Shown one piece after another: positions 20,472 through 31,189 of a stretch of 64,000 nt of DNA (position 1 is its first letter; every line of letters starts with the position of its first letter). Below the pieces are notes generated by a model. That model worked only from the letters and a program-made list of their open reading frames with translations, did no database searches and was not told where the DNA came from. The position numbers and the translations under genes are program-made. The stretch is from Patescibacteria group bacterium (GTDB lineage: Bacteria; Patescibacteriota; Patescibacteriia; Patescibacteriales; UBA12465): contig JBAZNJ010000001.1 in assembly GCA_041649315.1 (NCBI GenBank), forward strand, positions 69,869 to 133,868, read 5' to 3'.

Positions 20472-20494
20472 CTGAGCCGTTGACCGGGATTGAA
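20472..20494. repeat. att copy A: displaced 3' end of tRNA-Thr(GGU)
   Basis: ctgagccgttgaccgggattgaa is identical to 31114-31136. A terminator hairpin lies immediately to its left (20440-20471). Confidence 0.85.
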
Positions 20495-20666
20495 GCACCG
20501 GACGGAAAATTAAGAAATGAAATAAAATTAGCAAGGATTAACTAAGATCAGTATAAATCCAGTTTCTCATCCTTCATCAATCTTAGACTACTTTACATAA
20601 ATTCCTCATCTCTTGGACACAATATGGCCAGGGCTATATAGGGACGAAGCGAACTAACGCGCTCTG

Positions 20667-21488: not shown

Positions 21489-21512
21489 GAGCCGTTGACC
21501 GGGATTGAACCG
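21489..21512. repeat. att copy B: displaced 3' end of tRNA-Thr(GGU)
   Basis: gagccgttgaccgggattgaaccg is identical to 31116-31139. A terminator hairpin lies to its left (21455-21488) and is homologous to the one beside copy A. Confidence 0.85.
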
Positions 21513-21702
21513 ATGCCGGCCAATTTTAGGAAAGTAAATAAATAAAAGGAAAAATTGATTTCAACCGATGAACAAAGGATTTCTCTGTTTCTCAATCATT
21601 AACAAACTTAGACTACTTCACATAAATTCTTCACCTCTTGGACACAATATGGCCACAATGTGGCCAGGACTATATAGGGGGAGGTGAAAAAGTTAAATAG
21701 AA

Positions 21703-21897
21703 CTACTTACTTTCGTTATCAACTTGTTCTTTTAATTTTCTTATGCTGGCGCTACTCTCATTAAATTTCTCGATTACCTCCTGCGCTACTCTCTGCGGTG
21801 TTCCCTGCGATGCATGATCGTCACAATGTTTGCCGTTATCTCTGACGACAGCAGGCGATATGTTACTAATTAACTGTGAAAATAAAGAAGACATCAT
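21703..21897 (-). CDS. 64-aa hypothetical protein (last gene of island operon)
   Basis: The ORF starts 15 nt after the protease-like gene ends. No recognisable motif. Confidence 0.4.
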   Translation of the reverse strand: MMSSLFSQLISNISPAVVRDNGKHCDDHASQGTPQRVAQEVIEKFNESSASIRKLKEQVDNESK

Positions 21898-21912
21898 ATA
21901 TTTCTATTATTT

Positions 21913-22902
21913 CTATAAAAATTTAATTACTTTTCTTTTTACGTTGCCTATATTGGCTTTAAAATGATCCCATAGTTCTATCGGTAAGCCAGCACTTTCG
22001 GCGTTATCAACCTTAAAAAACCAATCTCTCAATTCTTCTCTTCGAATAGCAAATCCGTGATCTGGATATTCCCAAACAAGTTTTTTAATCACCATATCAG
22101 CTATTTTTTCTCTTAGACTATCCTTCTTAACATATTTTAGCATGTTCTTTGATAATAACTCCTTGCCATACATTTGGGCGATGGATAAAAGCCTTAAAGC
22201 TGTATTATATATTTTTACATCTTGTTTTGCTATCATCGGCGATATTAAATTAGCTACAAATTTTCCGGCAATATCCAAACATTTTTCAGATGAAATCCTA
22301 TATTCTTCTATCAATTGCGTTGCTAATATTTTTTGTTTATCTATCGCCGTGCTTATAATTGTATCTAAAGATTTAGCTATATCTAACGCTGATATTGTAA
22401 CCATCTCATCGTCAGGATGTTTCATCGGCTTATCGAGTGGCCCCAACTCAGATATACAAGACATTATAAGTTTATCCGCAGCCAAACACATCATTGTCCC
22501 AGAACTTTTAGCTTCCTGCGCAATAGCAATTTCAATCGTTTCATATTTTTCTCTAAGCATATCCATAATTTTAACAGCCGAATATACATTGCCGCCCGGG
22601 GTATCTAAATAAATCAAAAGCGATTTTTTAAATTCCGTTTTATTTTTTAAAATCTCGTATATTTTTATTTCATCATCTTGATTTATAGAATAGTGAAAAT
22701 TTCCGATCTCGTCTTTAGAATATAACATCAATAAAACATCTTTATCCTTTTTGAAATCATCTAATGTCACCTGACCTATGCCTTCGCTGGGCAGATCATC
22801 TTTCTTCTGAGCCGGCGCTGGGGCAACTCTTAAAGCCACTCCCGGAGATATATCTACTGGCTTTGTATCTGTTGGTTTCGCGGATGTTATGTTTTCCCCC
22901 AT
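21913..22902 (-). CDS. SDH-family / ClpP-fold (S49-like) serine protease-like protein
   Basis: LIYLDTPGGNVYSAVKIMDML ... IAIAQEAKSSGTMMCLAADKLIMSCISELGPLDKPM matches the pattern xTPGG ... AxSxGTxxxLxADxIxM ... LGPxDP of Clp-fold serine proteinases. The N-terminal ~45 aa are low-complexity. Confidence 0.6.
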   Translation of the reverse strand: MGENITSAKPTDTKPVDISPGVALRVAPAPAQKKDDLPSEGIGQVTLDDFKKDKDVLLMLYSKDEIGNFHYSINQDDEIKIYEILKNKTEFKKSLLIYLDTPGGNVYSAVKIMDMLREKYETIEIAIAQEAKSSGTMMCLAADKLIMSCISELGPLDKPMKHPDDEMVTISALDIAKSLDTIISTAIDKQKILATQLIEEYRISSEKCLDIAGKFVANLISPMIAKQDVKIYNTALRLLSIAQMYGKELLSKNMLKYVKKDSLREKIADMVIKKLVWEYPDHGFAIRREELRDWFFKVDNAESAGLPIELWDHFKANIGNVKRKVIKFL

Positions 22903-23007
22903 ATTTCAAATCATTAGTATCTTTGATGATTTAAATCTACCATATTTTCCAATCAATATCAAGGATAATTGTAAAAAGGTAAAACTATACAAAATATTTA
23001 ATTTCTC

Positions 23008-23376
23008 TTATTTTATATGGATATTTCTCGGTCTAATTTTCCTTAACATACAACCAGCCAACCAATAAGAGAATAAGGATATAAACTCAAACCAAAAATT
23101 AAAAATTATTTCCCAACCATAAACCATAATCAAAATGGCAACAATGCTGAAATAAATCAAATTATAAATCAAACTCCCAATTCCTCTCTCCCAAAATTTT
23201 ATAACAAAAAATAATAAAACAAAAAAGATTACATATATTTTTGATGTTAGCCAGGTATCTGCTACCGCTTGCCCAAAAGCTGATGCGGCGATTTTTTCAG
23301 CCTCGCTAATCGTTTTATGAATAAAATCCCAACTACTAAATGTATTAAGTGCTTGAGCTAAATCTTTATCCGGCAT
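23008..23376 (-). CDS. small 3-TM membrane protein, hypothetical
   Basis: A 122-aa ORF. Its start lies 1 nt after the upstream gene's stop. It has three hydrophobic helices. Confidence 0.5.
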   Translation of the reverse strand: MPDKDLAQALNTFSSWDFIHKTISEAEKIAASAFGQAVADTWLTSKIYVIFFVLLFFVIKFWERGIGSLIYNLIYFSIVAILIMVYGWEIIFNFWFEFISLFSYWLAGCMLRKIRPRNIHIK

Positions 23377-23377
23377 A

Positions 23378-24412
23378 TCATTTTAAGCGCGTTACCACGC
23401 GAGAAAATTTATAATCTGATACAGTTTTAGTATCTTTAACAAAATTAAGATGCGTCTTAATTACATAATTTAGGTTATCCATACATTTAACTGCGGCCTT
23501 CTTATATTTATCCATTTCAGCCAAATCATTTTTTGGGTGAACCAACTCATTCGCTAAATCCGCAATGTCAGTCAATTTTTTTTCTGCTGTTTTATTTATG
23601 AGTAGTTTTTTAAATAAATTTTTATTTCGACAAGATTTTACCAAGGCATAAATTCCTTTTGACATTGGCTTGCCGCCTGCCCCACTTTTTCCTTCTTTTT
23701 TATAAATTTCAAATACGCTTCCTTTATTGATAAGTATATTTACCAGCGCTTGCTCCGCGGCTATCCGGCACATAACAATAGACGGGTAAAAATCACCCAA
23801 GATATAGAATTCTTGAGCTTTTATAAATAAATCAAAATAATTACCATCATAAACCATAACTCCGCGATATCTTTGAGTTGTTGTAATGTATCTTGACCAC
23901 ATAGCTGGCAACTCTTTTTTTAAACCATTTTGCCATTGTTGCATAAATTCGCCTTTTTCCTGCCTACGCATTTTTAATGGTAAATACCCACCGCCCCTAA
24001 CTTTAAAAGTCCTGCGGACTTGAAATTTCTCATCAAGATCTTTGCGTTCTTTGAAATTAGTCTTTAAAAGCCACCAGCTGCTATTAAATCTGACAACTAA
24101 AATAGTCGCATTGCGCTTACTAATTTTCTTACTTTTCCAGCCAATATCCTTTATATCTTTTATGTCCAAGCTAATTTTCTTTCCCGTGTCATTTGGGTTT
24201 GATTTTTTTTCTTTGAACTCAATCATGATTTCGAAATCATCATCAAGATAAATATTCGAACTATTATTATCTAATATTTCTATGAGCGCCGATGAAAAAA
24301 GAGATGTATTTCTTTTCTTAAGTTCTGGGTCTATAAATTCCTCTTTTACTTTATTTATAAATTGACCAAAACTTTCGCTGTTTACTACATTTTGGTTAGG
24401 TATTATTAACAT
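23378..24412 (-). CDS. hypothetical protein with DUF4145/HEPN-like C-terminal helical domain
   Basis: The C-terminal region reads FYPSIVMCRIAAEQALVNIL ... LTDIADLANELVHPKN ... AAVKCMDNLNYVIK. This resembles the DUF4145 pattern (helix with R..lE, later l..lGN...H). N and H are present, but R and G are replaced by A. This is a by-eye call. Confidence 0.35.
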   Translation of the reverse strand: MLIIPNQNVVNSESFGQFINKVKEEFIDPELKKRNTSLFSSALIEILDNNSSNIYLDDDFEIMIEFKEKKSNPNDTGKKISLDIKDIKDIGWKSKKISKRNATILVVRFNSSWWLLKTNFKERKDLDEKFQVRRTFKVRGGGYLPLKMRRQEKGEFMQQWQNGLKKELPAMWSRYITTTQRYRGVMVYDGNYFDLFIKAQEFYILGDFYPSIVMCRIAAEQALVNILINKGSVFEIYKKEGKSGAGGKPMSKGIYALVKSCRNKNLFKKLLINKTAEKKLTDIADLANELVHPKNDLAEMDKYKKAAVKCMDNLNYVIKTHLNFVKDTKTVSDYKFSRVVTRLK

Positions 24413-24422
24413 AAATTGTAAT

Positions 24423-26186
24423 TTATTTTCGCTTTAATTTTTCCCTCCAAAAATCATTATATACTTTATCTAAAAATTTATTGCTGGGTTGATTACCATT
24501 AATTCTTGTCACATAGGACACAAACCCTTGGCTCTTGTCATTTTTAATATTATTAAAAATATCTTCAATTTCAATTTTATCTTTGACAACCTCGTATACT
24601 TCCAACTCATCGATATTTAAAAGATGATAATCAAAATCTTTTAAGCCGATTAAATCTGTATTCTTCTCTTCCATTTTTGACAACAAATTTGCAACTTTTT
24701 CTTTATAAATTGCGGACGAAGCGAGCGGTATTTCTAAAAAGACAATCACCGGAATAAAAGTTTTCCCTCTTAAATTTTTAAGTTCTTCATATTGATCAAT
24801 ATCTTTTATAGTCTTAAACATTTCTACCACAGAAGCAGCAATTTTTTTTAATTCATTATTAACTATTGCTTCAAGATCACCCGTCTGCCTACTTAACAAC
24901 GCGAACTGGTATGCCTTGGCTTCAAATAAATAACATTTATTTTCTTTTATAATATACCAATCTGTGAACATATTGCTCCCCCTTGAGTAAGAAAATTCCG
25001 AATTAACATTTGCTAAACCATAAATATCTTTTAATATTAATCCAACATATTGCTCAAAAATTTTTCCAAAATATGTCCGATAATGTAAATGCATTTTTTT
25101 ATCTCTGCCCGTTGTTTCAAAATAATTATGAAACCACCAAAAAATTCCACTATAAATTTTAAACATGTAGGTAGACACGTTGGGCATTATATAGGCATCC
25201 TGTGAATTTATATTTTCCTTTACTAACGGAAAAATGAATAATGGATTAAATCTATTTTTTGTATAAACCGAGCTCAAGTCATCATTCAGTTCTTTATCTA
25301 AATCTTTAAACTTTTTATAATCTGCGGCAACAATCTCTAAAAAACTATTAACTTTTTCCTCTGTGTAAATATTTTCAAATTCTGGTATCTTTGCGGTAGC
25401 TAAATAGGAAGATGAAAATATAATACGATCTTTCACCCCAGCAAGAAAACCAAAACCAATCTGTAAATATTCCTCCATCGTAATTTTATTTTCCTTAAAA
25501 AATATGTCTGAAAGCTTTTCAAACTTATCTGGAATTATTTTACCGGCCAAATCGAAGAAGAAAACAATGTTTCTGGACATTAGACATAACTGATTAAACT
25601 GAAAACTGCTCATCTGCTCATACCACATTCTAACCATAAACGAGAGAAAATCATCATTATCAAATTTTTTCATTCCCTCATTAATCTTCACTAAATCTGG
25701 GCTGATTAATTTATTATTATAAATATTGCATAACACAAACAAGGAATATGGGTTATCTTTAAAATTATCACCACTGTCATCGCTTGCGCCAGACAATATT
25801 AGCATATTAGCTATGTAAGCTAACGAAAATTGAGAAATAAGAATATCTGTATTTTCTTCGCGATATCCAATTCTTCCCAATCCTTCAGTATTTCCTTGAA
25901 ATACATATCGAGAAATATCTCCTATTAATATTAAATTATCCCTTAAACTATACCTTTTTAAAACTGATTTAAAATCCTGTTCAGTAACTTCGCCTTCTCC
26001 TTTGACAGACAGGAGCCTGCCGATATCATCATCAATCGGATGCTTAATTCCTTTTTTATCTGTTATAGCTATTTTAGGGATTAATAATCTCCCTATACCC
26101 AAGACATCTTTATTCATACAGCATTTTTTATATTTTTTACCGCTACCACAATGGCACGGCTTATTGACCAAATTACCAATCCCCAT
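24423..26186 (-). CDS. SEC-C motif protein with PD-(D/E)xK nuclease-like C-terminal region
   Basis: The N-terminal CHCGSGKKYKKCC is the SEC-C metal-binding motif. Later, FGKIFEQYVG ... FTDWYIIKENKCYLFEAKAY fits the E ... D ... ExK restriction-endonuclease-fold pattern. Confidence 0.5.
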   Translation of the reverse strand: MGIGNLVNKPCHCGSGKKYKKCCMNKDVLGIGRLLIPKIAITDKKGIKHPIDDDIGRLLSVKGEGEVTEQDFKSVLKRYSLRDNLILIGDISRYVFQGNTEGLGRIGYREENTDILISQFSLAYIANMLILSGASDDSGDNFKDNPYSLFVLCNIYNNKLISPDLVKINEGMKKFDNDDFLSFMVRMWYEQMSSFQFNQLCLMSRNIVFFFDLAGKIIPDKFEKLSDIFFKENKITMEEYLQIGFGFLAGVKDRIIFSSSYLATAKIPEFENIYTEEKVNSFLEIVAADYKKFKDLDKELNDDLSSVYTKNRFNPLFIFPLVKENINSQDAYIMPNVSTYMFKIYSGIFWWFHNYFETTGRDKKMHLHYRTYFGKIFEQYVGLILKDIYGLANVNSEFSYSRGSNMFTDWYIIKENKCYLFEAKAYQFALLSRQTGDLEAIVNNELKKIAASVVEMFKTIKDIDQYEELKNLRGKTFIPVIVFLEIPLASSAIYKEKVANLLSKMEEKNTDLIGLKDFDYHLLNIDELEVYEVVKDKIEIEDIFNNIKNDKSQGFVSYVTRINGNQPSNKFLDKVYNDFWREKLKRK

Positions 26187-26189
26187 AGT

Positions 26190-27149
26190 TTAGATCTTAG
26201 TTTTTTCCTTATTTATAGATTTCTTTATCTCAATCATTTCCTCGAACTCCTTCTTGCCCTTTGCGTAACAATACTGAAAAGACAACCCCGGGCGGATTAA
26301 ATTAAATCGTTGCACATCATTATCTTTAATTCTCTTTCTAATTACTTTTTTACCAGATACTGGCTCCACAAGTTCTATTAAGACTTTAGGGGATAAAGGA
26401 AAATAATGCTTTCTCTCTAAGAAGGTATAACCATAAATGTTTGGAAGCTCTGGCGATAACTCTATCACTGGCGTATCAGAGGTAATAAACTCTTTTTCGT
26501 CTACCGCTATATACACCCTCCAGTTTTTATTGAATATTACATTAGCAAATCCCTCTAAGTGCTCAATAAATAAAAGTTGCTCGACATTATTAAAACTTAA
26601 ATCATAGTTACCGGTTTGCATTAATTTAACATACCAATCAATATCTTCATCATCCATATCCAACCCTTCTTTTTTCTTGAGTTCTTTGGCTATTGTTTTT
26701 ATGTGATCTTTATATCCGTCCATGGATGCTCTAAATTTTTCCGTTTCTTTATAAAAATGGGAGCTTATTCTATTTATCTTTTCTCTAAAATGTTTACTCC
26801 GTATCCATAATGAACTCATAAATAAGGATACAAAATACATTTGTCGGCTATCTAACTGCTGATTGTTTAGTATACTTTTTTCTAACTTGTTAAGCGCGGG
26901 AGCCGCTTTATCTTCAATACCCTGAAAAATATCTTCAATTTTCTGGCTGGCCTCATCTTGTTTCCCAGTATCTACTGCATAAAAAAACTTCTCGTAGCAT
27001 ACGCCGCTATAAGGGCGTGCCGGGTTTAATTTAACATTTTTTATATCAAGAACCTCTATAAAGTTCTTTTCATTAGCAAATCTTTTTAGGTAAAAACGAG
27101 GGACCCAATGCTGATCTTCCACTATTATATTTTGGTTATTGTTTGCCAT
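26190..27149 (-). CDS. DUF4238 family protein
   Basis: The N-terminal QHWVPRFYLKRFA is the hallmark H-x-V/I-P-x-F-Y-L-x-x-F start of DUF4238. Its length (319 aa) is typical of the family. Confidence 0.65.
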   Translation of the reverse strand: MANNNQNIIVEDQHWVPRFYLKRFANEKNFIEVLDIKNVKLNPARPYSGVCYEKFFYAVDTGKQDEASQKIEDIFQGIEDKAAPALNKLEKSILNNQQLDSRQMYFVSLFMSSLWIRSKHFREKINRISSHFYKETEKFRASMDGYKDHIKTIAKELKKKEGLDMDDEDIDWYVKLMQTGNYDLSFNNVEQLLFIEHLEGFANVIFNKNWRVYIAVDEKEFITSDTPVIELSPELPNIYGYTFLERKHYFPLSPKVLIELVEPVSGKKVIRKRIKDNDVQRFNLIRPGLSFQYCYAKGKKEFEEMIEIKKSINKEKTKI

Positions 27150-27393
27150 ATAACTGATAGGGTGCGCTTATTTAAGAGACTATTTTAGCTTGCCCGCTGT
27201 TAAAATTATATGCCCCTTTTTCAACCATGTCTATGTATGAAATGAAAAATATGTGCCACGTCTTTTTCACCCTAAAAAATACGATTTTCATTAAAAAATG
27301 GCTAATTTAAAATAAAAAATCAAAAAAATAACAATTTTAAAAGATCCAAAATGCTATTATTGAGTTTTATGCACCTTTATGGTAGATTATAAG

Positions 27394-27552
27394 TGCGAAA
27401 CCACAATTGAATTTTCGAAAGACGTGCTTTAAGAGCATGGTCTCTTGTATACAGGAACGGGCACTCCGACCCATACAAGAGGCAGTCTTTCGGGACACCA
27501 ATTGTGGTTTCGCAACCAGGTCGGGTGTCCGTTTTTGTTTTCGGGCACTTTT
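27394..27552 (+). ncRNA. structured RNA of unknown class (riboswitch-like leader or stand-alone ncRNA)
   Basis: Nested pairings: P1 27395-27409/27499-27513 (15 bp, perfect); P1a 27416-27423/27485-27492 (8 bp); P2 27424-27428/27434-27438; P3 27440-27450/27473-27483 (11 bp). G.U pairs occur only in the plus-strand reading. Alternative hairpins follow at 27491-27498/27525-27531 and 27525-27531/27542-27548, the latter followed by TTTT. Confidence 0.55.
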
Positions 27553-27572
27553 ACAAATTAATAAATAAAAAT

Positions 27573-27971
27573 ATGAAAAAAATTGTCTTATTCGTGACAC
27601 CACTTATCCTATTGCCGGGTTCCTGCCTGGCTGCTGGCTCAAATTCGAATGAATACAACTGGGGCTTAATAATTGGATCTATTATTGTTGGGGGCATTTT
27701 TAGTTTAGCGATCTCTATTGGACAAGATAAAAATCAAAATGCCAAAGGAAACATGTGGTATAAGGAAATACACATGCCAAAAACAGCTAAATTTATAAAA
27801 ACCACTATTGCGATATTAGGATTTTACTTGCTCTATACTTTTATAGCCAACCTGCTATTTCCTGAGCAACGAAACGAAATCAGAATTTTATTAGTCGTCT
27901 TGGCAACCGTTTTAACGATCTATGCCCACAAAAAATTCTTTAATAAAAATGGACAACAAAATAAAACTTAA
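27573..27971 (+). CDS. small membrane/secreted protein, hypothetical
   Basis: ORF 27504..27971. The likely start is ATG at 27573 (MKKIVLFVTPLILLPGSCLAAGS), a signal peptide with a possible lipobox, followed by 3 TM helices. Confidence 0.5.
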   Translation: MKKIVLFVTPLILLPGSCLAAGSNSNEYNWGLIIGSIIVGGIFSLAISIGQDKNQNAKGNMWYKEIHMPKTAKFIKTTIAILGFYLLYTFIANLLFPEQRNEIRILLVVLATVLTIYAHKKFFNKNGQQNKT

Positions 27972-28527
27972 TTACATAAAATGCCCTAACTGCCAGAATA
28001 TTCTTGATCTATCTTTTGTTAAGAGCGTTTGTCCTAATCCGCTCTGTGGCTTCAATTTCAACGATTTAGAGGCCTTATTAGATCAAGACGAGGGAAAGCT
28101 ACGTCAGGCCCTTATAAACGCTACTAAGAGCAAAGATGTCCATGGGATAAAGCTCCTTGCCACGGCCGTTAAATTTAATATGCCTGGCTACTTGACACAT
28201 TTTATTGAATGCAGTTGGGGTGCCCATTATCAAACGCTTTTTAAAGATTTCATTACTCTTTATCTTGACGATCTCAACGTCTTGAAAATGATATTGTCAT
28301 CCGACGTTATCTGTCCCGCAAAAAATAATGTGGTGACCTCGAAAAATGGATATAAAATCTTTCTCGGGTTATACCAATACCTGATGAAAGTTCATAGTCC
28401 TGATATTAGAAATTTTCTAAGGCTTGAATTTCCGGGGTTTTACAGAAAATGGTATAAGGAAATACTTGCCAAGAACCACCGACCAAAAACTACTGATAAA
28501 AACATCAACCAAACCGCGCTCATCTAA
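27949..28527 (+). CDS. hypothetical protein with N-terminal zinc-ribbon
   Basis: ORF 27922..28527. The likely start is MDNKIKLNYIKCPNCQNILDLSFVKSVCPNPLCGF, which carries CxxC...CxxxxC. Confidence 0.45.
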   Translation: MDNKIKLNYIKCPNCQNILDLSFVKSVCPNPLCGFNFNDLEALLDQDEGKLRQALINATKSKDVHGIKLLATAVKFNMPGYLTHFIECSWGAHYQTLFKDFITLYLDDLNVLKMILSSDVICPAKNNVVTSKNGYKIFLGLYQYLMKVHSPDIRNFLRLEFPGFYRKWYKEILAKNHRPKTTDKNINQTALI

Positions 28528-28551
28528 ACTCCCCGAAGCGGGGAGTTTTTT
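28528..28551 (+). terminator. rho-independent terminator
   Basis: The 8-bp stem actccccg (28528-28535) pairs with cggggagt (28539-28546), followed by TTTTT. Confidence 0.7.
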
Positions 28552-28593
28552 ATTGCTAATCACGGAAAAAGTGATAAAATACATAGTAATACT

Positions 28594-29238
28594 ATGAAAA
28601 ATTCTTTCGGACAAAAAATATTAAATAATCTGCTAACTATGTTAGCGGATGAAAAATTCAGAGAAGAAGTCATATCTATAAGAAAAAAGTTTCAAATACC
28701 AGAAACCGGCATTGATGATAGTTATAAAGAACGACATGGCCGTCATGCGTTTCTGAGTTGTGCCGAAAATTTAGAAAAACTTAGGGTTAAATATAAATTA
28801 AATGAGCATTACGGCATCTTTCTAATGTATATTGTAATATTCGGCAAGAGGCCAAATAAAAGCATTCTTAACGATACATCACCATTCGAACTTATGCATT
28901 ATCAAGAAAAAAGCGGCCTAAATTGCGCCGCTATTAAAATATACCAGGAAACTACGATCAAAGATATACAAAATAATTGGGATATCATAAAGAAATTTAG
29001 CGAAGAAACATACGAACGCGAAGTAAAAGCCAAACAAAGGCCCATTAACAATGCTGAGAGGGACTTTTATATTAGAAAGTTAAAAAACTGGGGTTTTAAA
29101 AATCGACAGACATCACAGATTATAAATAATATTTTTCCACAAGAGGGAGTAATCTCATATACAGATATTCCAAAAATAACAGAAAGAAACAAAAGAAAGG
29201 CGGCTAAGCTATTACAAAATACCAATAAAACCAAGTAA
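28594..29238 (+). CDS. hypothetical protein
   Basis: A 214-aa ORF with no motif I recognise and a basic C-terminus. Confidence 0.45.
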   Translation: MKNSFGQKILNNLLTMLADEKFREEVISIRKKFQIPETGIDDSYKERHGRHAFLSCAENLEKLRVKYKLNEHYGIFLMYIVIFGKRPNKSILNDTSPFELMHYQEKSGLNCAAIKIYQETTIKDIQNNWDIIKKFSEETYEREVKAKQRPINNAERDFYIRKLKNWGFKNRQTSQIINNIFPQEGVISYTDIPKITERNKRKAAKLLQNTNKTK

Positions 29239-29261
29239 AATTTGCTCTTCTATATCGATAC

Positions 29262-29291
29262 CGCTGGGAGGATGTCCGCCCAGCGTTTTTT
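29262..29291 (+). terminator. rho-independent terminator
   Basis: The stem cgctggg (29262-29268) pairs with cccagcg (29279-29285), followed by TTTTTT. Confidence 0.7.
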
Positions 29292-29509
29292 ATTTATATA
29301 ATGGAGTTATCGTGCCCCAGCCCTACATCCGGGCAGCCGGAGCGATCCAAAATAATTTGCGGCGGAAGGATGTTTAAAAACGGATCCTCACACCTCAAGC
29401 AGATAGTTATCAACCTAACAAGGCAAAAGGCAAGAATAATAAATGATAACTGCTTAGGGGGAGAAATGGCTTAACCCATGGGGGTTTGGTAATACAATAG
29501 AATAACAAT

Positions 29510-29671
29510 ATGAGAAATCTACATTATAAATTATTTAGTTATCGACTAAACCCAAAAACTGTAAAACAACTCAAAAAAATAAAAAAAGAAAAAGGATTAA
29601 CCTATAATCTACTATTTGTTGATCTTTTAAAAAATTATAAAAAACACAAACCCAAAAAACCAAAATCTTAA
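29510..29671 (+). CDS. 53-aa basic protein, possibly ribbon-helix-helix-type regulator
   Basis: Hand translation gives MRNLHYKLFSYRLNPKTVKQLKKIKKEKGLTYNLLFVDLLKNYKKHKPKKPKS. It is below the ORF-track cutoff and sits upstream of xis-int. Confidence 0.35.
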   Translation: MRNLHYKLFSYRLNPKTVKQLKKIKKEKGLTYNLLFVDLLKNYKKHKPKKPKS

Positions 29672-29748
29672 AAAATAACCCGGTTTATGATAGGATTATA
29701 TAGTCCAATAGCCAACCGGCTATCCCTATATAGTCCTTTAAAAAATAA

Positions 29749-29949
29749 ATGTTTGGCTCAGCGTCCGACAAGTTAATAACCCCTGACGAGTTAGCAGATT
29801 TCCTAAGGATCTCCCGGGCTTCGGTCTACCGCTTGGTGGACGGCCGGAAACTTTCTTTTTGCAAAGTGGGAGGATCGTTAAGGTTTAGAGCGGAAGATAT
29901 AGATAGATACTTAAAAGCGGTCTGCGTTGAGCCGATAAATAAATTATGA
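29749..29949 (+). CDS. xis: excisionase-family helix-turn-helix DNA-binding protein
   Basis: LITPDELADFLRISRASVYRLVDGRKLSFCKVGGSLRFRAEDIDRYL is the classic excisionase/MerR-like HTH. Its stop overlaps the integrase start (ATGA). Confidence 0.8.
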   Translation: MFGSASDKLITPDELADFLRISRASVYRLVDGRKLSFCKVGGSLRFRAEDIDRYLKAVCVEPINKL

Positions 29950-31064
29950 GCGTAAATAAGCGCGGCAAAAAATATTGGATCGATTTCCGCTTTAACCGGC
30001 AAAGATATCGGCATCCCAGCCCGGACAATAGTTTGGCCGGAGCTAAGGCGTATGAGGCCTTGCTGAGGCAAAAACTGGCTCGTGGCGAGCCAATAACCGA
30101 AGAAAAAGCCAAAATAACGACCTTCGCGGAATTCAGCCGAAAATGGTTTGATGTCTATGTTAAAAATAACAATAAACCATCCGAGATCGCCAATAAGGAA
30201 AGCGCCTTGCGGATCCACCTAATTCCCTTCTTTGATAAAAAAGAAATAGATAAAATATCCAACCTGGATATTGAAAACTACAAGGCTAAAGAAATTTCTA
30301 CCGGATTATCAAATAAAAGCATCAACAATATACTGATAATCCTAAATAAATGCTTAGGCACGGCCGAGGAATGGGGAGAAATAGACAAAAAACCGAAAGT
30401 GAAACTCCTAAAAGTCCAGCCGCAAAAATTTGACTTCCTAACCGGCGAAGAGGCCGAGGCGCTTCTGAAAAATTCTGATGGCTGGCTACACGAGATGATC
30501 TTGATTGCTCTAAAGACCGGCCTAAGGTTTGGCGAGCTGATCGCTCTGGACTGGGACGACCTTGATTTCACTGCGAAAAATATAATTGTCCGACGCGGCG
30601 TAGCTAATGGCATATTAGGAAGCACTAAAAGCAATAAAATAAGGACGATCCCAATGGCCGGCGAAATTATCGAACTAATGATGAAAAGATACCAATCAAA
30701 AGGATTAGTCTTTCCGCCCAGCCATGACAGCTACCTAACTCACAATCTTTGTCATAAGGAGCTTAAAAGAGCTTGCCGGCGCGCCGGGCTAAGAGAAATC
30801 GGCTGGCATACTCTAAGGCATAGCTTCGCCTCCCATTTAGCGCAGAACGGCGTCTCTCTGAAAGTTATTCAAGAACTGCTCGGCCATTCCAACATCGTTA
30901 CTACAATGCGCTACTCCCACTTAACCGCCGCTTCCCTGATCGAGGCCATTAAAACTCTGGATGGGAGTAAAAATGGCCGAACCATAGAACTTGGCCACAA
31001 TATGGCCACAATCCCGACTGAACAGGTAAAAATTCCTGCTATTTCCAGCATCAATTTATCATAA
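29946..31064 (+). CDS. int: tyrosine recombinase / phage-type integrase
   Basis: The C-terminal catalytic region reads GLRFGELIALDWDDL ... HTLRHSFASHLAQNGVSLKVIQELLGHSNIVTTMRYSH, giving the R..HxxR..Y residues. It lies adjacent to the tRNA. Confidence 0.9.
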   Translation: MSVNKRGKKYWIDFRFNRQRYRHPSPDNSLAGAKAYEALLRQKLARGEPITEEKAKITTFAEFSRKWFDVYVKNNNKPSEIANKESALRIHLIPFFDKKEIDKISNLDIENYKAKEISTGLSNKSINNILIILNKCLGTAEEWGEIDKKPKVKLLKVQPQKFDFLTGEEAEALLKNSDGWLHEMILIALKTGLRFGELIALDWDDLDFTAKNIIVRRGVANGILGSTKSNKIRTIPMAGEIIELMMKRYQSKGLVFPPSHDSYLTHNLCHKELKRACRRAGLREIGWHTLRHSFASHLAQNGVSLKVIQELLGHSNIVTTMRYSHLTAASLIEAIKTLDGSKNGRTIELGHNMATIPTEQVKIPAISSINLS

Positions 31065-31116
31065 TTTTCTTTTATTTTAAACAAAAAATCGCCTATCAGA
31101 CGATTTTTCCAAACTG

Positions 31117-31189
31117 AGCCGTTGACCGGGATTGAACCGGTGACCTTCTCCTTACCATGGAGATGCTCTACCAGCTGAGCTACAACGGC
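31117..31189 (-). tRNA. tRNA-Thr (anticodon GGU), integration target
   Basis: The reverse complement reads GCCGTTG TA GCTCAGCTGGTAGAGC A TCTCC-ATGGTAA-GGAGA AGGTC ACCGGTTCAATCCCGGT CAACGGC-T. Confidence 0.9.

Follow-up and report, generated by a model that had tools for sequence, protein, structure and literature searches.

A Conserved Leader RNA of Patescibacteria Mobile Elements With a Putative Split Terminator

Introduction

What is the strongly folded RNA that heads a gene cluster on a small genomic island of a Patescibacteria group bacterium, and what might it do for the genes that follow it? The question arises from a stretch of 64,000 nucleotides (contig JBAZNJ010000001.1 of assembly GCA_041649315.1, positions 69,869 to 133,868 of the forward strand; hereafter the window), in which a first-pass annotation made from the letters alone had pointed out a structured RNA around 27394-27552 and had suggested an antiterminator/terminator switch. 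To our knowledge, gene regulation is almost unexplored in the mobile elements of the candidate phyla radiation (CPR). The RNA, which extends from 27394 to 27541 on the plus strand, has been found to represent a real, conserved family of about 60 loci in the mobile elements of the ultra-small Patescibacteria (CPR), which is outside Rfam 15 and has not been catalogued before. Its main feature is a 13-bp helix between a hairpin loop and the 3' tail, directly followed by a U-tract, which may serve as a terminator of unusual anatomy.

Fold and Conservation of the RNA

Measured from the first nucleotide of P1 to the last of the U-tract, the element comprises about 147 nt in the window (155 bits with the covariance model) and 143-156 nt in its homologues. 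It begins with the long helix P1, whose strands lie at 27394-27409 and 27499-27514, and which consists of a core (27395-27409/27499-27513) and one additional pair, U27394-A27514. A 6x6 internal loop (27410-27415/27493-27498) with a variable, A/U-rich 5' side (27410-27415) and a conserved GGAYAC on its 3' side (27493-27498) leads to P1a (27416-27423/27485-27492), which closes a three-way junction with linkers of 0, 1 and 1 nt. The junction carries P2 (27424-27438; stem 27424-27428/27434-27438, loop UUAAG) and P3 (27440-27483; stem 27440-27450/27473-27483) with its 22-nt loop (27451-27472). For the plus strand of 27385-27560, RNAfold gives -76.1 kcal/mol compared with a shuffle mean of -42.0 (z = -7.9), and none of 200 shuffles is as good; the minus strand of the same stretch gives -61.5 kcal/mol (z = -6.3). 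The fold of 27394-27541 is far beyond chance, and the window carries a single copy of the RNA; a second candidate for a structured RNA, at 29296-29500, is not significant (z = -1.7).

A DNA pattern derived from the conserved 3' part, which fixed most tail positions in most homologues and left the loop side free, has returned 58 metagenome loci, 52 with the full RNA and six that are chance matches in G+C-rich coding DNA. Relatives of a 201-aa Zn-ribbon protein, which is encoded downstream of the RNA in the window, occur in metagenome-assembled genomes of Falkowbacteria, Parcubacteria and Patescibacteria; in four such loci the RNA precedes the protein gene on the same strand, and three further island types with the RNA have been reached solely via this protein. 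An obligate link between the two had to be dismissed, as five protein loci are without RNA and most RNA loci are without the protein. A specific pattern has further detected the RNA in one viral contig of IMG/VR (L209). BLAST with the RNA against plasmid and phage collections found nothing, and neither a 15-mer scan of viral contigs (60 matches) nor a looser P1/U-tract pattern applied to viral contigs (80 matches) yielded a homologue. The total amounts to 52 distinct homologue sequences, which belong to prophage-like elements and integrative islands of Patescibacteria.

The main covariation counts have been taken from a covariance-model-based alignment of these 52 sequences, in which 48 pairs are proposed. 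Standard pairs are formed in 94.6% of the cells, compared with 34-50% when the partners are slid, two-sided (compensatory) changes occur in 31 of the 48 pairs, and no shuffle attains the observed covariation; an independent MAFFT alignment has given the same structural result. P1 is paired in 98.3% of the cells with two-sided changes in 8 of 15 pairs, and its terminal GCGAAAC/GUUUCGC is nearly invariant. The P3 stem reaches 98.8% with such changes in 9 of 11 pairs, and in P1a 7 of 8 pairs are affected. At the position of P2, sequence and length vary among homologues: a hairpin of 4-9 bp is present in 47 of 48, and the sequences are unrelated. Within the proposed pairs, 169 cells are G.U and 26 are A.C, so the plus-strand RNA is the selected molecule. 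An open reading frame (ORF) at 27407-27568 has been rejected as a gene, since the homologues differ by 1-nt indels inside the element, which excludes a coding reading, and the substitutions are compensatory within helices.

With Rfam 15 (4227 models), the whole window at gathering thresholds has returned seven tRNAs only, the region 27100-27700 at E ≤ 10 two short chance matches that both lie outside the element, and twelve homologous loci tRNAs only; limited full-text searches of the literature have found no description of the RNA family. The first-pass annotation had read P1, the 6x6 loop, P1a, P2, P3 and the 0/1/1 junction at exactly these positions, had called the RNA strongly structured and probably plus-sense, and had been unable to assign it to a class. 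All of this is borne out by the folding energies, the excess of G.U cells, the covariance-model search and the abundant compensatory change among the homologues.

The Helix Between the P3 Loop and the 3' Tail

What the first-pass annotation had overlooked is the main feature of the RNA. Segment c in the P3 loop (CGGGCACUCCGACC, 27458-27471, with U27465 bulged) pairs with segment c' in the 3' tail (GGUCGGGUGUCCG, 27519-27531), which is separated from P1 by the conserved linker AACNA (27514-27518). This 13-bp long-range helix is paired in 98.2% of the cells, and six of its pairs have undergone two-sided changes. Five loci that have been ascertained through the protein, independently of the tail search, carry changes of this kind: CCGAUC/GAUCGG in L064 and L067, CGAUU/AAUCG as well as GACGUCC/GGGCGUC in L063, and CUGAUC/GAUCAG in L219, together with a G-C to G.U change in L216, where the bulge is shifted to the opposite strand. 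The loop:tail duplex amounts to -33.1 kcal/mol in the window and to -31.2 kcal/mol on average, compared with -12.6 kcal/mol for shuffled tails; in all of the 48 sequences, none of the 200 shuffles reaches it. A local hairpin inside the P3 loop, formable in 96% of the cells, has been discarded, since its one covarying pair is better explained by the long-range helix.

Directly at the end of this helix lies the U-tract (UUUUUGUUUU, U5GU4, 27532-27541), whose T columns are invariant or near-invariant. It adjoins the long-range helix in every homologue, and the similarity between homologues fades 3' of it. Its UUUUUGU can pair with ACAGGAA on the 5' side of the P3 loop (27451-27457) in 94% of the cells, with weak covariation. 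A G+C-rich helix followed by a U-rich tract, as known from intrinsic terminators, is thus formed by 27458-27471/27519-27531 and the U-tract. A simple short-loop hairpin it is not: the arms are joined by 47 nt, which comprise the 3' strands of P3, P1a and P1, and a consensus terminator scan makes no call at this place.

The tail has further possible partners, and the first-pass annotation had built its switch on two of them. It had 27525-27531 pair either with 27491-27498, as an antiterminator, or with 27542-27548 followed by UUUU, as a terminator. Such alternative pairings do exist in the window (with 27492-27498 and with 27542-27548), and the calculated strengths are -33 kcal/mol for the P3 loop, -13 for the internal loop and -11.8 for the downstream hairpin, which makes the P3 loop by far the strongest tail partner. 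The GGAYAC of the internal loop is similar to the first (5') half of the pairing segment in the P3 loop and complements GUGUCC of the tail; this pairing can form in 97% of the cells without any compensatory change, and it is broken in the two sequences with an altered tail, in which the P3 loop compensates. The proposed antiterminator consequently finds no comparative support. Regarding the terminator, the downstream complement of the tail (CGGGCAC followed by UUUU, 27542-27552) forms a hairpin with 27523-27531 whose loop is the U-tract. Comparable hairpins beat 95% of shuffles in 31 of 46 homologues, with differing sequences and registers and with non-homologous complements, and are lacking in about one third. 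A U-run of at least 5 U in 8 nt follows in only 7 of 38 cases, and the mean of 3.05 U is close to background. The hairpin is therefore real and recurrent, yet in general no canonical terminator, and it does not represent the conserved terminator-like element. Of the proposed switch layout, the leader position and the switch-like alternative pairings have persisted, and the specific terminator and antiterminator helices have not.

Promoter and Downstream Genes

The RNA is preceded by a promoter in fixed register. In the window, a -35 box (TTGAGT, 27360-27365) and an extended -10 box (TGG TAGATT, 27380-27388), both on the plus strand, predict a start at about 27394-27395. The -35 box, the 17-nt spacer and the -10 box stand at the identical offset in all 45 scored homologues and match the consensus at 8-10 of 12 positions, with TTTACT or TTGAAT as -35 box and TATATT as -10 box in homologues, compared with TAGATT and an upstream TG in the window; the columns of the -10 consensus TATATT are invariant or near-invariant. 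This fixed sigma-70 promoter register places the predicted 5' end of the transcript at P1. Moreover, the similarity between loci with different upstream neighbours starts exactly at the -35 box.

A co-oriented ORF lies downstream in all 48 loci for which downstream sequence is available, at a median distance of 38.5 nt from the U-tract. In the window it is the gene at 27573-27971 (plus strand), whose ATG at 27573 had been correctly named in the first-pass annotation and whose 132-aa product possesses a signal-peptide-like N-terminus and hydrophobic segments; the RNA constitutes the 5' leader before this ATG. No conserved second promoter has been found in front of the co-oriented gene: the promoter-like sites between U-tract and ORF are weaker and not fixed in position, and a promoter that would use TTGTTT of the U-tract as its -35 box has been rejected for want of a fixed spacing to any -10 box. 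A covarying 5' leader therefore shares the promoter of the co-oriented genes, as is expected of a cis-regulatory attenuator.

The downstream ORFs are mostly non-homologous between loci and encode secreted SNase-domain, Lipoprotein_Ltp-domain, bPH_2 membrane, Zn-ribbon and unknown proteins. Genes of one pathway, as they would be expected behind a riboswitch, have not been found among them; the sole shared trait is the hydrophobic segments, with a strongly hydrophobic stretch of 19 aa in 38 of the 48 first downstream ORFs. The Lipoprotein_Ltp family is that of the TP-J34 superinfection-exclusion lipoprotein. A Shine-Dalgarno sequence is not evident before most downstream ORFs. The spacer between U-tract and start codon contains a semi-conserved A/T-rich motif in several loci (L114, L118; about alignment columns 214-245), in some of them with the perfect palindrome TAAATTAATTTA, which may be an operator or a translation signal.

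A Proposed Split Terminator on a Scaffold

Based on these features, one may postulate that the RNA is a cis-acting attenuator leader with a split intrinsic terminator on a scaffold, which gates the cargo or core genes of the mobile elements; as far as can be read from the sequences, we give this proposal an even chance. Transcription would start at P1 from the sigma-70 promoter, and the RNA folds into a rod of P1, internal loop and P1a, which has the three-way junction with P2 and P3 at its end. P1 would be completed before the tail is transcribed, and the stability of the rod exceeds that of a nested fold with only the terminator by 13 kcal/mol on average, so that the tail would have to find the loop on an already folded scaffold. 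The loop-tail helix and the U-tract would then act as an intrinsic terminator, both arms of which are displayed on the scaffold. If the helix is formed, transcription would stop at about 27538-27541, and an RNA of about 147 nt would be released. If the loop is occupied or the arms are held apart, with P3 stacked away from P1, the polymerase would read through into the cargo or core genes, after which the tail could be captured by the complementary segment just downstream. The loop-tail helix with its U-tract is the sole universally terminator-like element, and ordinary terminators of hairpin and U-run are used elsewhere in the same operons. The shape of the scaffold or the occupancy of the P3 loop would be a natural control point, and the input signal might be a protein, a ligand, another RNA or the kinetics of folding. 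A bolder version, which we regard as possible rather than probable, holds that the RNA defines a new class of signal-responsive switches of Patescibacteria mobile elements, in which an intrinsic terminator is divided over the three-way-junction scaffold and in which scaffold geometry or P3-loop occupancy, not nucleotide competition, decides on termination. Such switches would gate membrane cargo of the superinfection-exclusion type in prophages and, in islands, the core operon for excision and integration, with a sister class controlling serine-recombinase genes.

Several points weigh against the attenuator. The invariance of the tail is partly due to ascertainment, because the search pattern had fixed the tail. 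From a rough geometrical consideration, the linker of 4-5 nt would be too short to bring the arms together if the rod were straight, so that pairing would need P3 to fold back along P1a/P1, a bend at the internal loop, fraying of P1, or two molecules. The 47-nt connector is itself base-paired, unlike the loop of any canonical terminator. An efficient formation of the helix would leave the switch constitutively off, and the frequent hairpin between tail and downstream sequence has no clear role in such a model.

Among the rival explanations, a stand-alone, stable small RNA (sRNA) of about 147 nt that acts in trans, in immunity or copy control of the element, as in satellite phage P4, or by head-to-tail assembly, with downstream expression as incidental read-through, would fit the strong promoter of its own, the terminator-like 3' end, the compact fold with conserved unpaired nucleotides and the vicinity of integrase and lysogeny-type genes, and the 20-nt complementarity of loop and tail could equally act between two molecules. 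We nevertheless deem it unlikely: no locus has a further site resembling the tail or the loop within about 10 kb, related islands do not share the one weak match of the window (29266-29278), and an ORF without a conserved promoter of its own follows at about 40 nt in every locus, which an independent sRNA would not require. A trans target in a terminator loop at 29263-29296, complementary to the P3 loop, has likewise been rejected, as it is absent from related islands. The ON-switch of the first-pass annotation, slightly less likely again, would have the loop-tail pseudoknot sequester the tail in an aptamer bound by ligand or protein, and the free tail form a downstream hairpin that ends transcription or silences the gene in another way. 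The enrichment of this hairpin (31 of 46 beat 95% of shuffles), the UUUU that follows it in the window, and the conserved unpaired nucleotides of internal loop, P3 loop and linker, which would fit a binding pocket, agree with such a switch. It conflicts with the scarcity of U-runs behind the hairpin (at least 5 U in 8 nt after only 7 of 38), with the roughly one third of homologues that are without it and with downstream genes that share no pathway, and it leaves the invariant U-tract directly 3' of the pseudoknot arm unexplained.

That P1 begins at the predicted first nucleotide, and that a portable cassette from promoter to U-tract precedes unrelated genes, would also be expected of a non-switching module of the 5' mRNA end, either a stabiliser or insulator against 5'-end-dependent decay or an undescribed self-cleaving or processed element giving a uniform 5' end; small ribozymes are often phage-associated. 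This is improbable in our view, as a stabiliser could do without a covarying three-way junction, a long-range helix of 13 bp and an invariant U-tract, and as no known ribozyme family matches and the junction is without a hammerhead-like core. The known self-cleaving ribozymes (hammerhead, twister, twister-sister, hatchet, pistol, HDV-like) have indeed been rejected by the lack of an Rfam match at E ≤ 10 and of a conserved core in the junction. An element acting as DNA, such as a recombination site, a transfer or replication origin or a packaging site that forms a cruciform or a single-stranded hairpin, is highly improbable. It would draw on the long inverted repeats, on the occurrence in mobile elements near recombinase and small-terminase genes, and on the distance of 115-175 nt from a tRNA-Ser 3' end in three loci; against it, the ratio of 169 G.U to 26 A.C cells indicates selection on the plus-strand RNA only, P1 and the promoter stand in a fixed register, 3.6 kb separate the element from the attachment site in the window, and recombinases of two unrelated families accompany it. 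A retron msr-msd RNA has also been rejected, since the neighbouring 319-aa ORF is DUF4238 and not a reverse transcriptase, and since the neighbours differ between loci.

Genomic Setting

The window belongs to a metagenome-assembled genome labelled 'Patescibacteria group bacterium', with proteins MFA4999827-60. Its RNA is carried by a low-GC island of about 9.65 kb (21489-31142; 30-36% GC inside, about 43% outside) at tRNA-Thr(ggt) (31116-31189), bounded by a 27-nt direct repeat of the tRNA 3' end (21489-21515 and 31116-31142). The tRNA-Thr 3' end occurs in three copies (20474-20500, 21489-21515 and 31116-31142), and CTTGGNCACAATATGGCCA is likewise found at 20612-20634, 21637-21659 and 30990-31012, at about 138-148 nt on the downstream side of the two left tRNA-end copies and, for the copy at the tRNA, at 126 nt on the upstream side; this layout of repeats suggests tandem island remnants and arm-type integrase sites.

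To the left of the RNA, a five-gene cargo operon (21913-27149, minus strand) encodes a DUF4238 protein (319 aa), a SEC-C protein with a weak GapS1-like match (587 aa), unknowns of 344 and 122 aa, and a ClpP/SDH-type protease-like protein (329 aa); PADLOC has matched no system in it. A link of the RNA to this defence-like operon is not supported by the comparison: the upstream neighbours of homologues vary between an integrase, tRNA-Ser, host genes and other cargo, and conservation sets in exactly with the -35 box. In related islands, the corresponding position is occupied by different defence-like cargo, namely an OLD-like ATPase, TerB_N, or ResIII with a methylase. A Logan contig of SRR8542065 (L001, 1385 bp) encodes the DUF4238 protein in identical form and includes ~110 nt from the beginning of the RNA, so that sample harbours the same element or strain.

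On the plus strand, the operon headed by the RNA continues with the genes of the 201-aa Zn-ribbon protein and a 214-aa protein (27922-29238), both of which recur in related islands. Behind the latter gene, a hairpin can be read from the sequence (CGCUGGG/CCCAGCG, 10-nt loop, then U6; 29263-29296, plus strand) that is probably the operon terminator and that escapes the terminator scan owing to this loop length; in related islands, ordinary terminators stand at the corresponding place. The loop (AGGAUGUCCG) resembles the RNA tail, and no such resemblance is found in related islands. Further downstream, an excisionase-like gene (66 aa) and a tyrosine integrase gene (372 aa) follow at 29749-31064 on the plus strand, with PHROG excisionase and NCBIfam tyrosine-recombinase matches. 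Just upstream of the former, TATATAGTCC occurs twice as a direct repeat (29699-29737), which may be a binding site of a regulator or recombinase.

Two kinds of surroundings are seen among the homologues. The prophage-like loci have a large serine recombinase in divergent orientation to the RNA and, behind the RNA, one or two cargo genes that converge on genes of a small terminase, a ParB-methylase and sometimes a large terminase. The island-type loci, among them that of the window, have the RNA at the head of a core operon on the plus strand whose last gene, a recombinase, lies beside a tRNA, and varied defence-like cargo lies upstream on the opposite strand. A recombinase has been found in 24 of 57 loci; of the 12 loci that extend for at least 3 kb to either side, 8 have one. 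In three loci a tRNA-Ser gene (L093 4165-4254, L094 3532-3619, L119 472-561) precedes the RNA on the same strand, with 115-175 nt between its 3' end and the RNA, which puts the RNA cassette at the very edge of the integrated element. In L063 and L064, the serine-recombinase ORF, as delimited with a simple ORF finder, extends into an oppositely oriented tRNA gene (C-terminus ...GIEPT...), and the attachment site therefore overlaps both genes.

A Sister RNA and the Significance of the Family

Six island loci contain a second, much more divergent RNA directly upstream of the serine-recombinase gene, with weak model matches of 22-28 bits (L216 7352-7478, L064 6508-6638 and L062 6350-6476; approximately L210 7095-7235, L219 8420-8550 and L063 6330-6470). 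It comprises a TATAAT box, a 5'/3' rod with a minimum free energy of -43 to -48 kcal/mol, an internal segment that is introduced by GAAAU and has its complement in the tail directly behind the rod, and a UUUU run behind the tail. The arms differ between islands yet are complementary in each (GGGCGGUUCUG/CAGAACCGYCC, GGGCAACUAACCG/CGGUUUAGUUGCCC, GGGCGCAGU/ACUGCGUCC), with duplexes of -17 to -23 kcal/mol. No Rfam family matches this sister RNA, and the window does not contain it. The recurrence of the same design in different sequences supports the split-terminator layout as a functional principle, and the second RNA suggests that the principle may be modular rather than a single case.

The cassette of about 190 bp from promoter to U-tract is common to elements with different integrases, insertion sites and cargo, and therefore provides a practical annotation marker for such elements. 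The RNA is a likely control point for prophage cargo and for the excision genes of islands, and its anatomy, with putative terminator arms on a folded scaffold and one of them in a hairpin loop, does not follow the standard attenuator design.

Comparison With Known Systems

In flavivirus exonuclease-resistant RNA (xrRNA), a three-way junction is closed by P1 and the P3 loop pairs with a strand 3' of P1, and the phi29 packaging RNA (pRNA, RF00044) combines a 5'/3' helix and a three-way junction with loops that are complementary between molecules. The likeness is one of shape only, since the helices of the RNA described here are much longer and since it has no 5'-end pseudoknot, Rfam match or phi29-type packaging genes; identity with a phi29-type pRNA has been rejected, the neighbouring terminases, where present, being large subunits of the Terminase_6 type and small subunits, with none on the island of the window. 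The CI RNA of P4 and the C4 RNA of P1 and P7 (RF01695) are derived from leaders, and their loop pairs with sites on the same transcription unit and leads to premature termination. The present RNA resembles them as a mobile-element leader RNA whose loop is complementary to the same transcription unit; in contrast, the complementary site is single and in cis, and the linker AAC[C/U/A]A is not a conserved CCA-type processing signal. An immunity RNA of this type has been rejected, given the lack of a covariance-model match and of additional target sites in any locus.

With a canonical intrinsic terminator, the RNA shares the G+C-rich helix followed by a U-tract and the purine/A-rich ACAGGAA 5' of the upstream arm, which can pair with the U-tract, whereas its 47-nt 'loop' is locked in three helices with upstream sequence, which amounts to a pseudoknot topology. 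In the fluoride, preQ1-I and ZTP transcriptional riboswitches, the 3' strand of the pseudoknot belongs to the expression platform. Like these, the RNA described here is a 5' leader with a covarying, aptamer-like fold and a pseudoknot with the 3' tail, and the tail has alternative partners beside a U-tract. Unlike these, it has no Rfam match and precedes genes that share a bias towards membrane proteins and no common pathway, and its pseudoknot helix abuts the U-tract, so that it looks like the terminator and not like the antiterminator. The HMP-PP (thiS) riboswitch is of a different build: its aptamer is said to sit within an ordinary compact terminator hairpin, whereas here a scaffold of about 120 nt separates the arms, one of which lies in a hairpin loop, and no sequence relationship exists between the two. 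The riboswitch has been called a 'terminator-embedded aptamer', and it offers a precedent for a sensor and an intrinsic terminator that are merged in one structure instead of being placed in series (PMC6478431).

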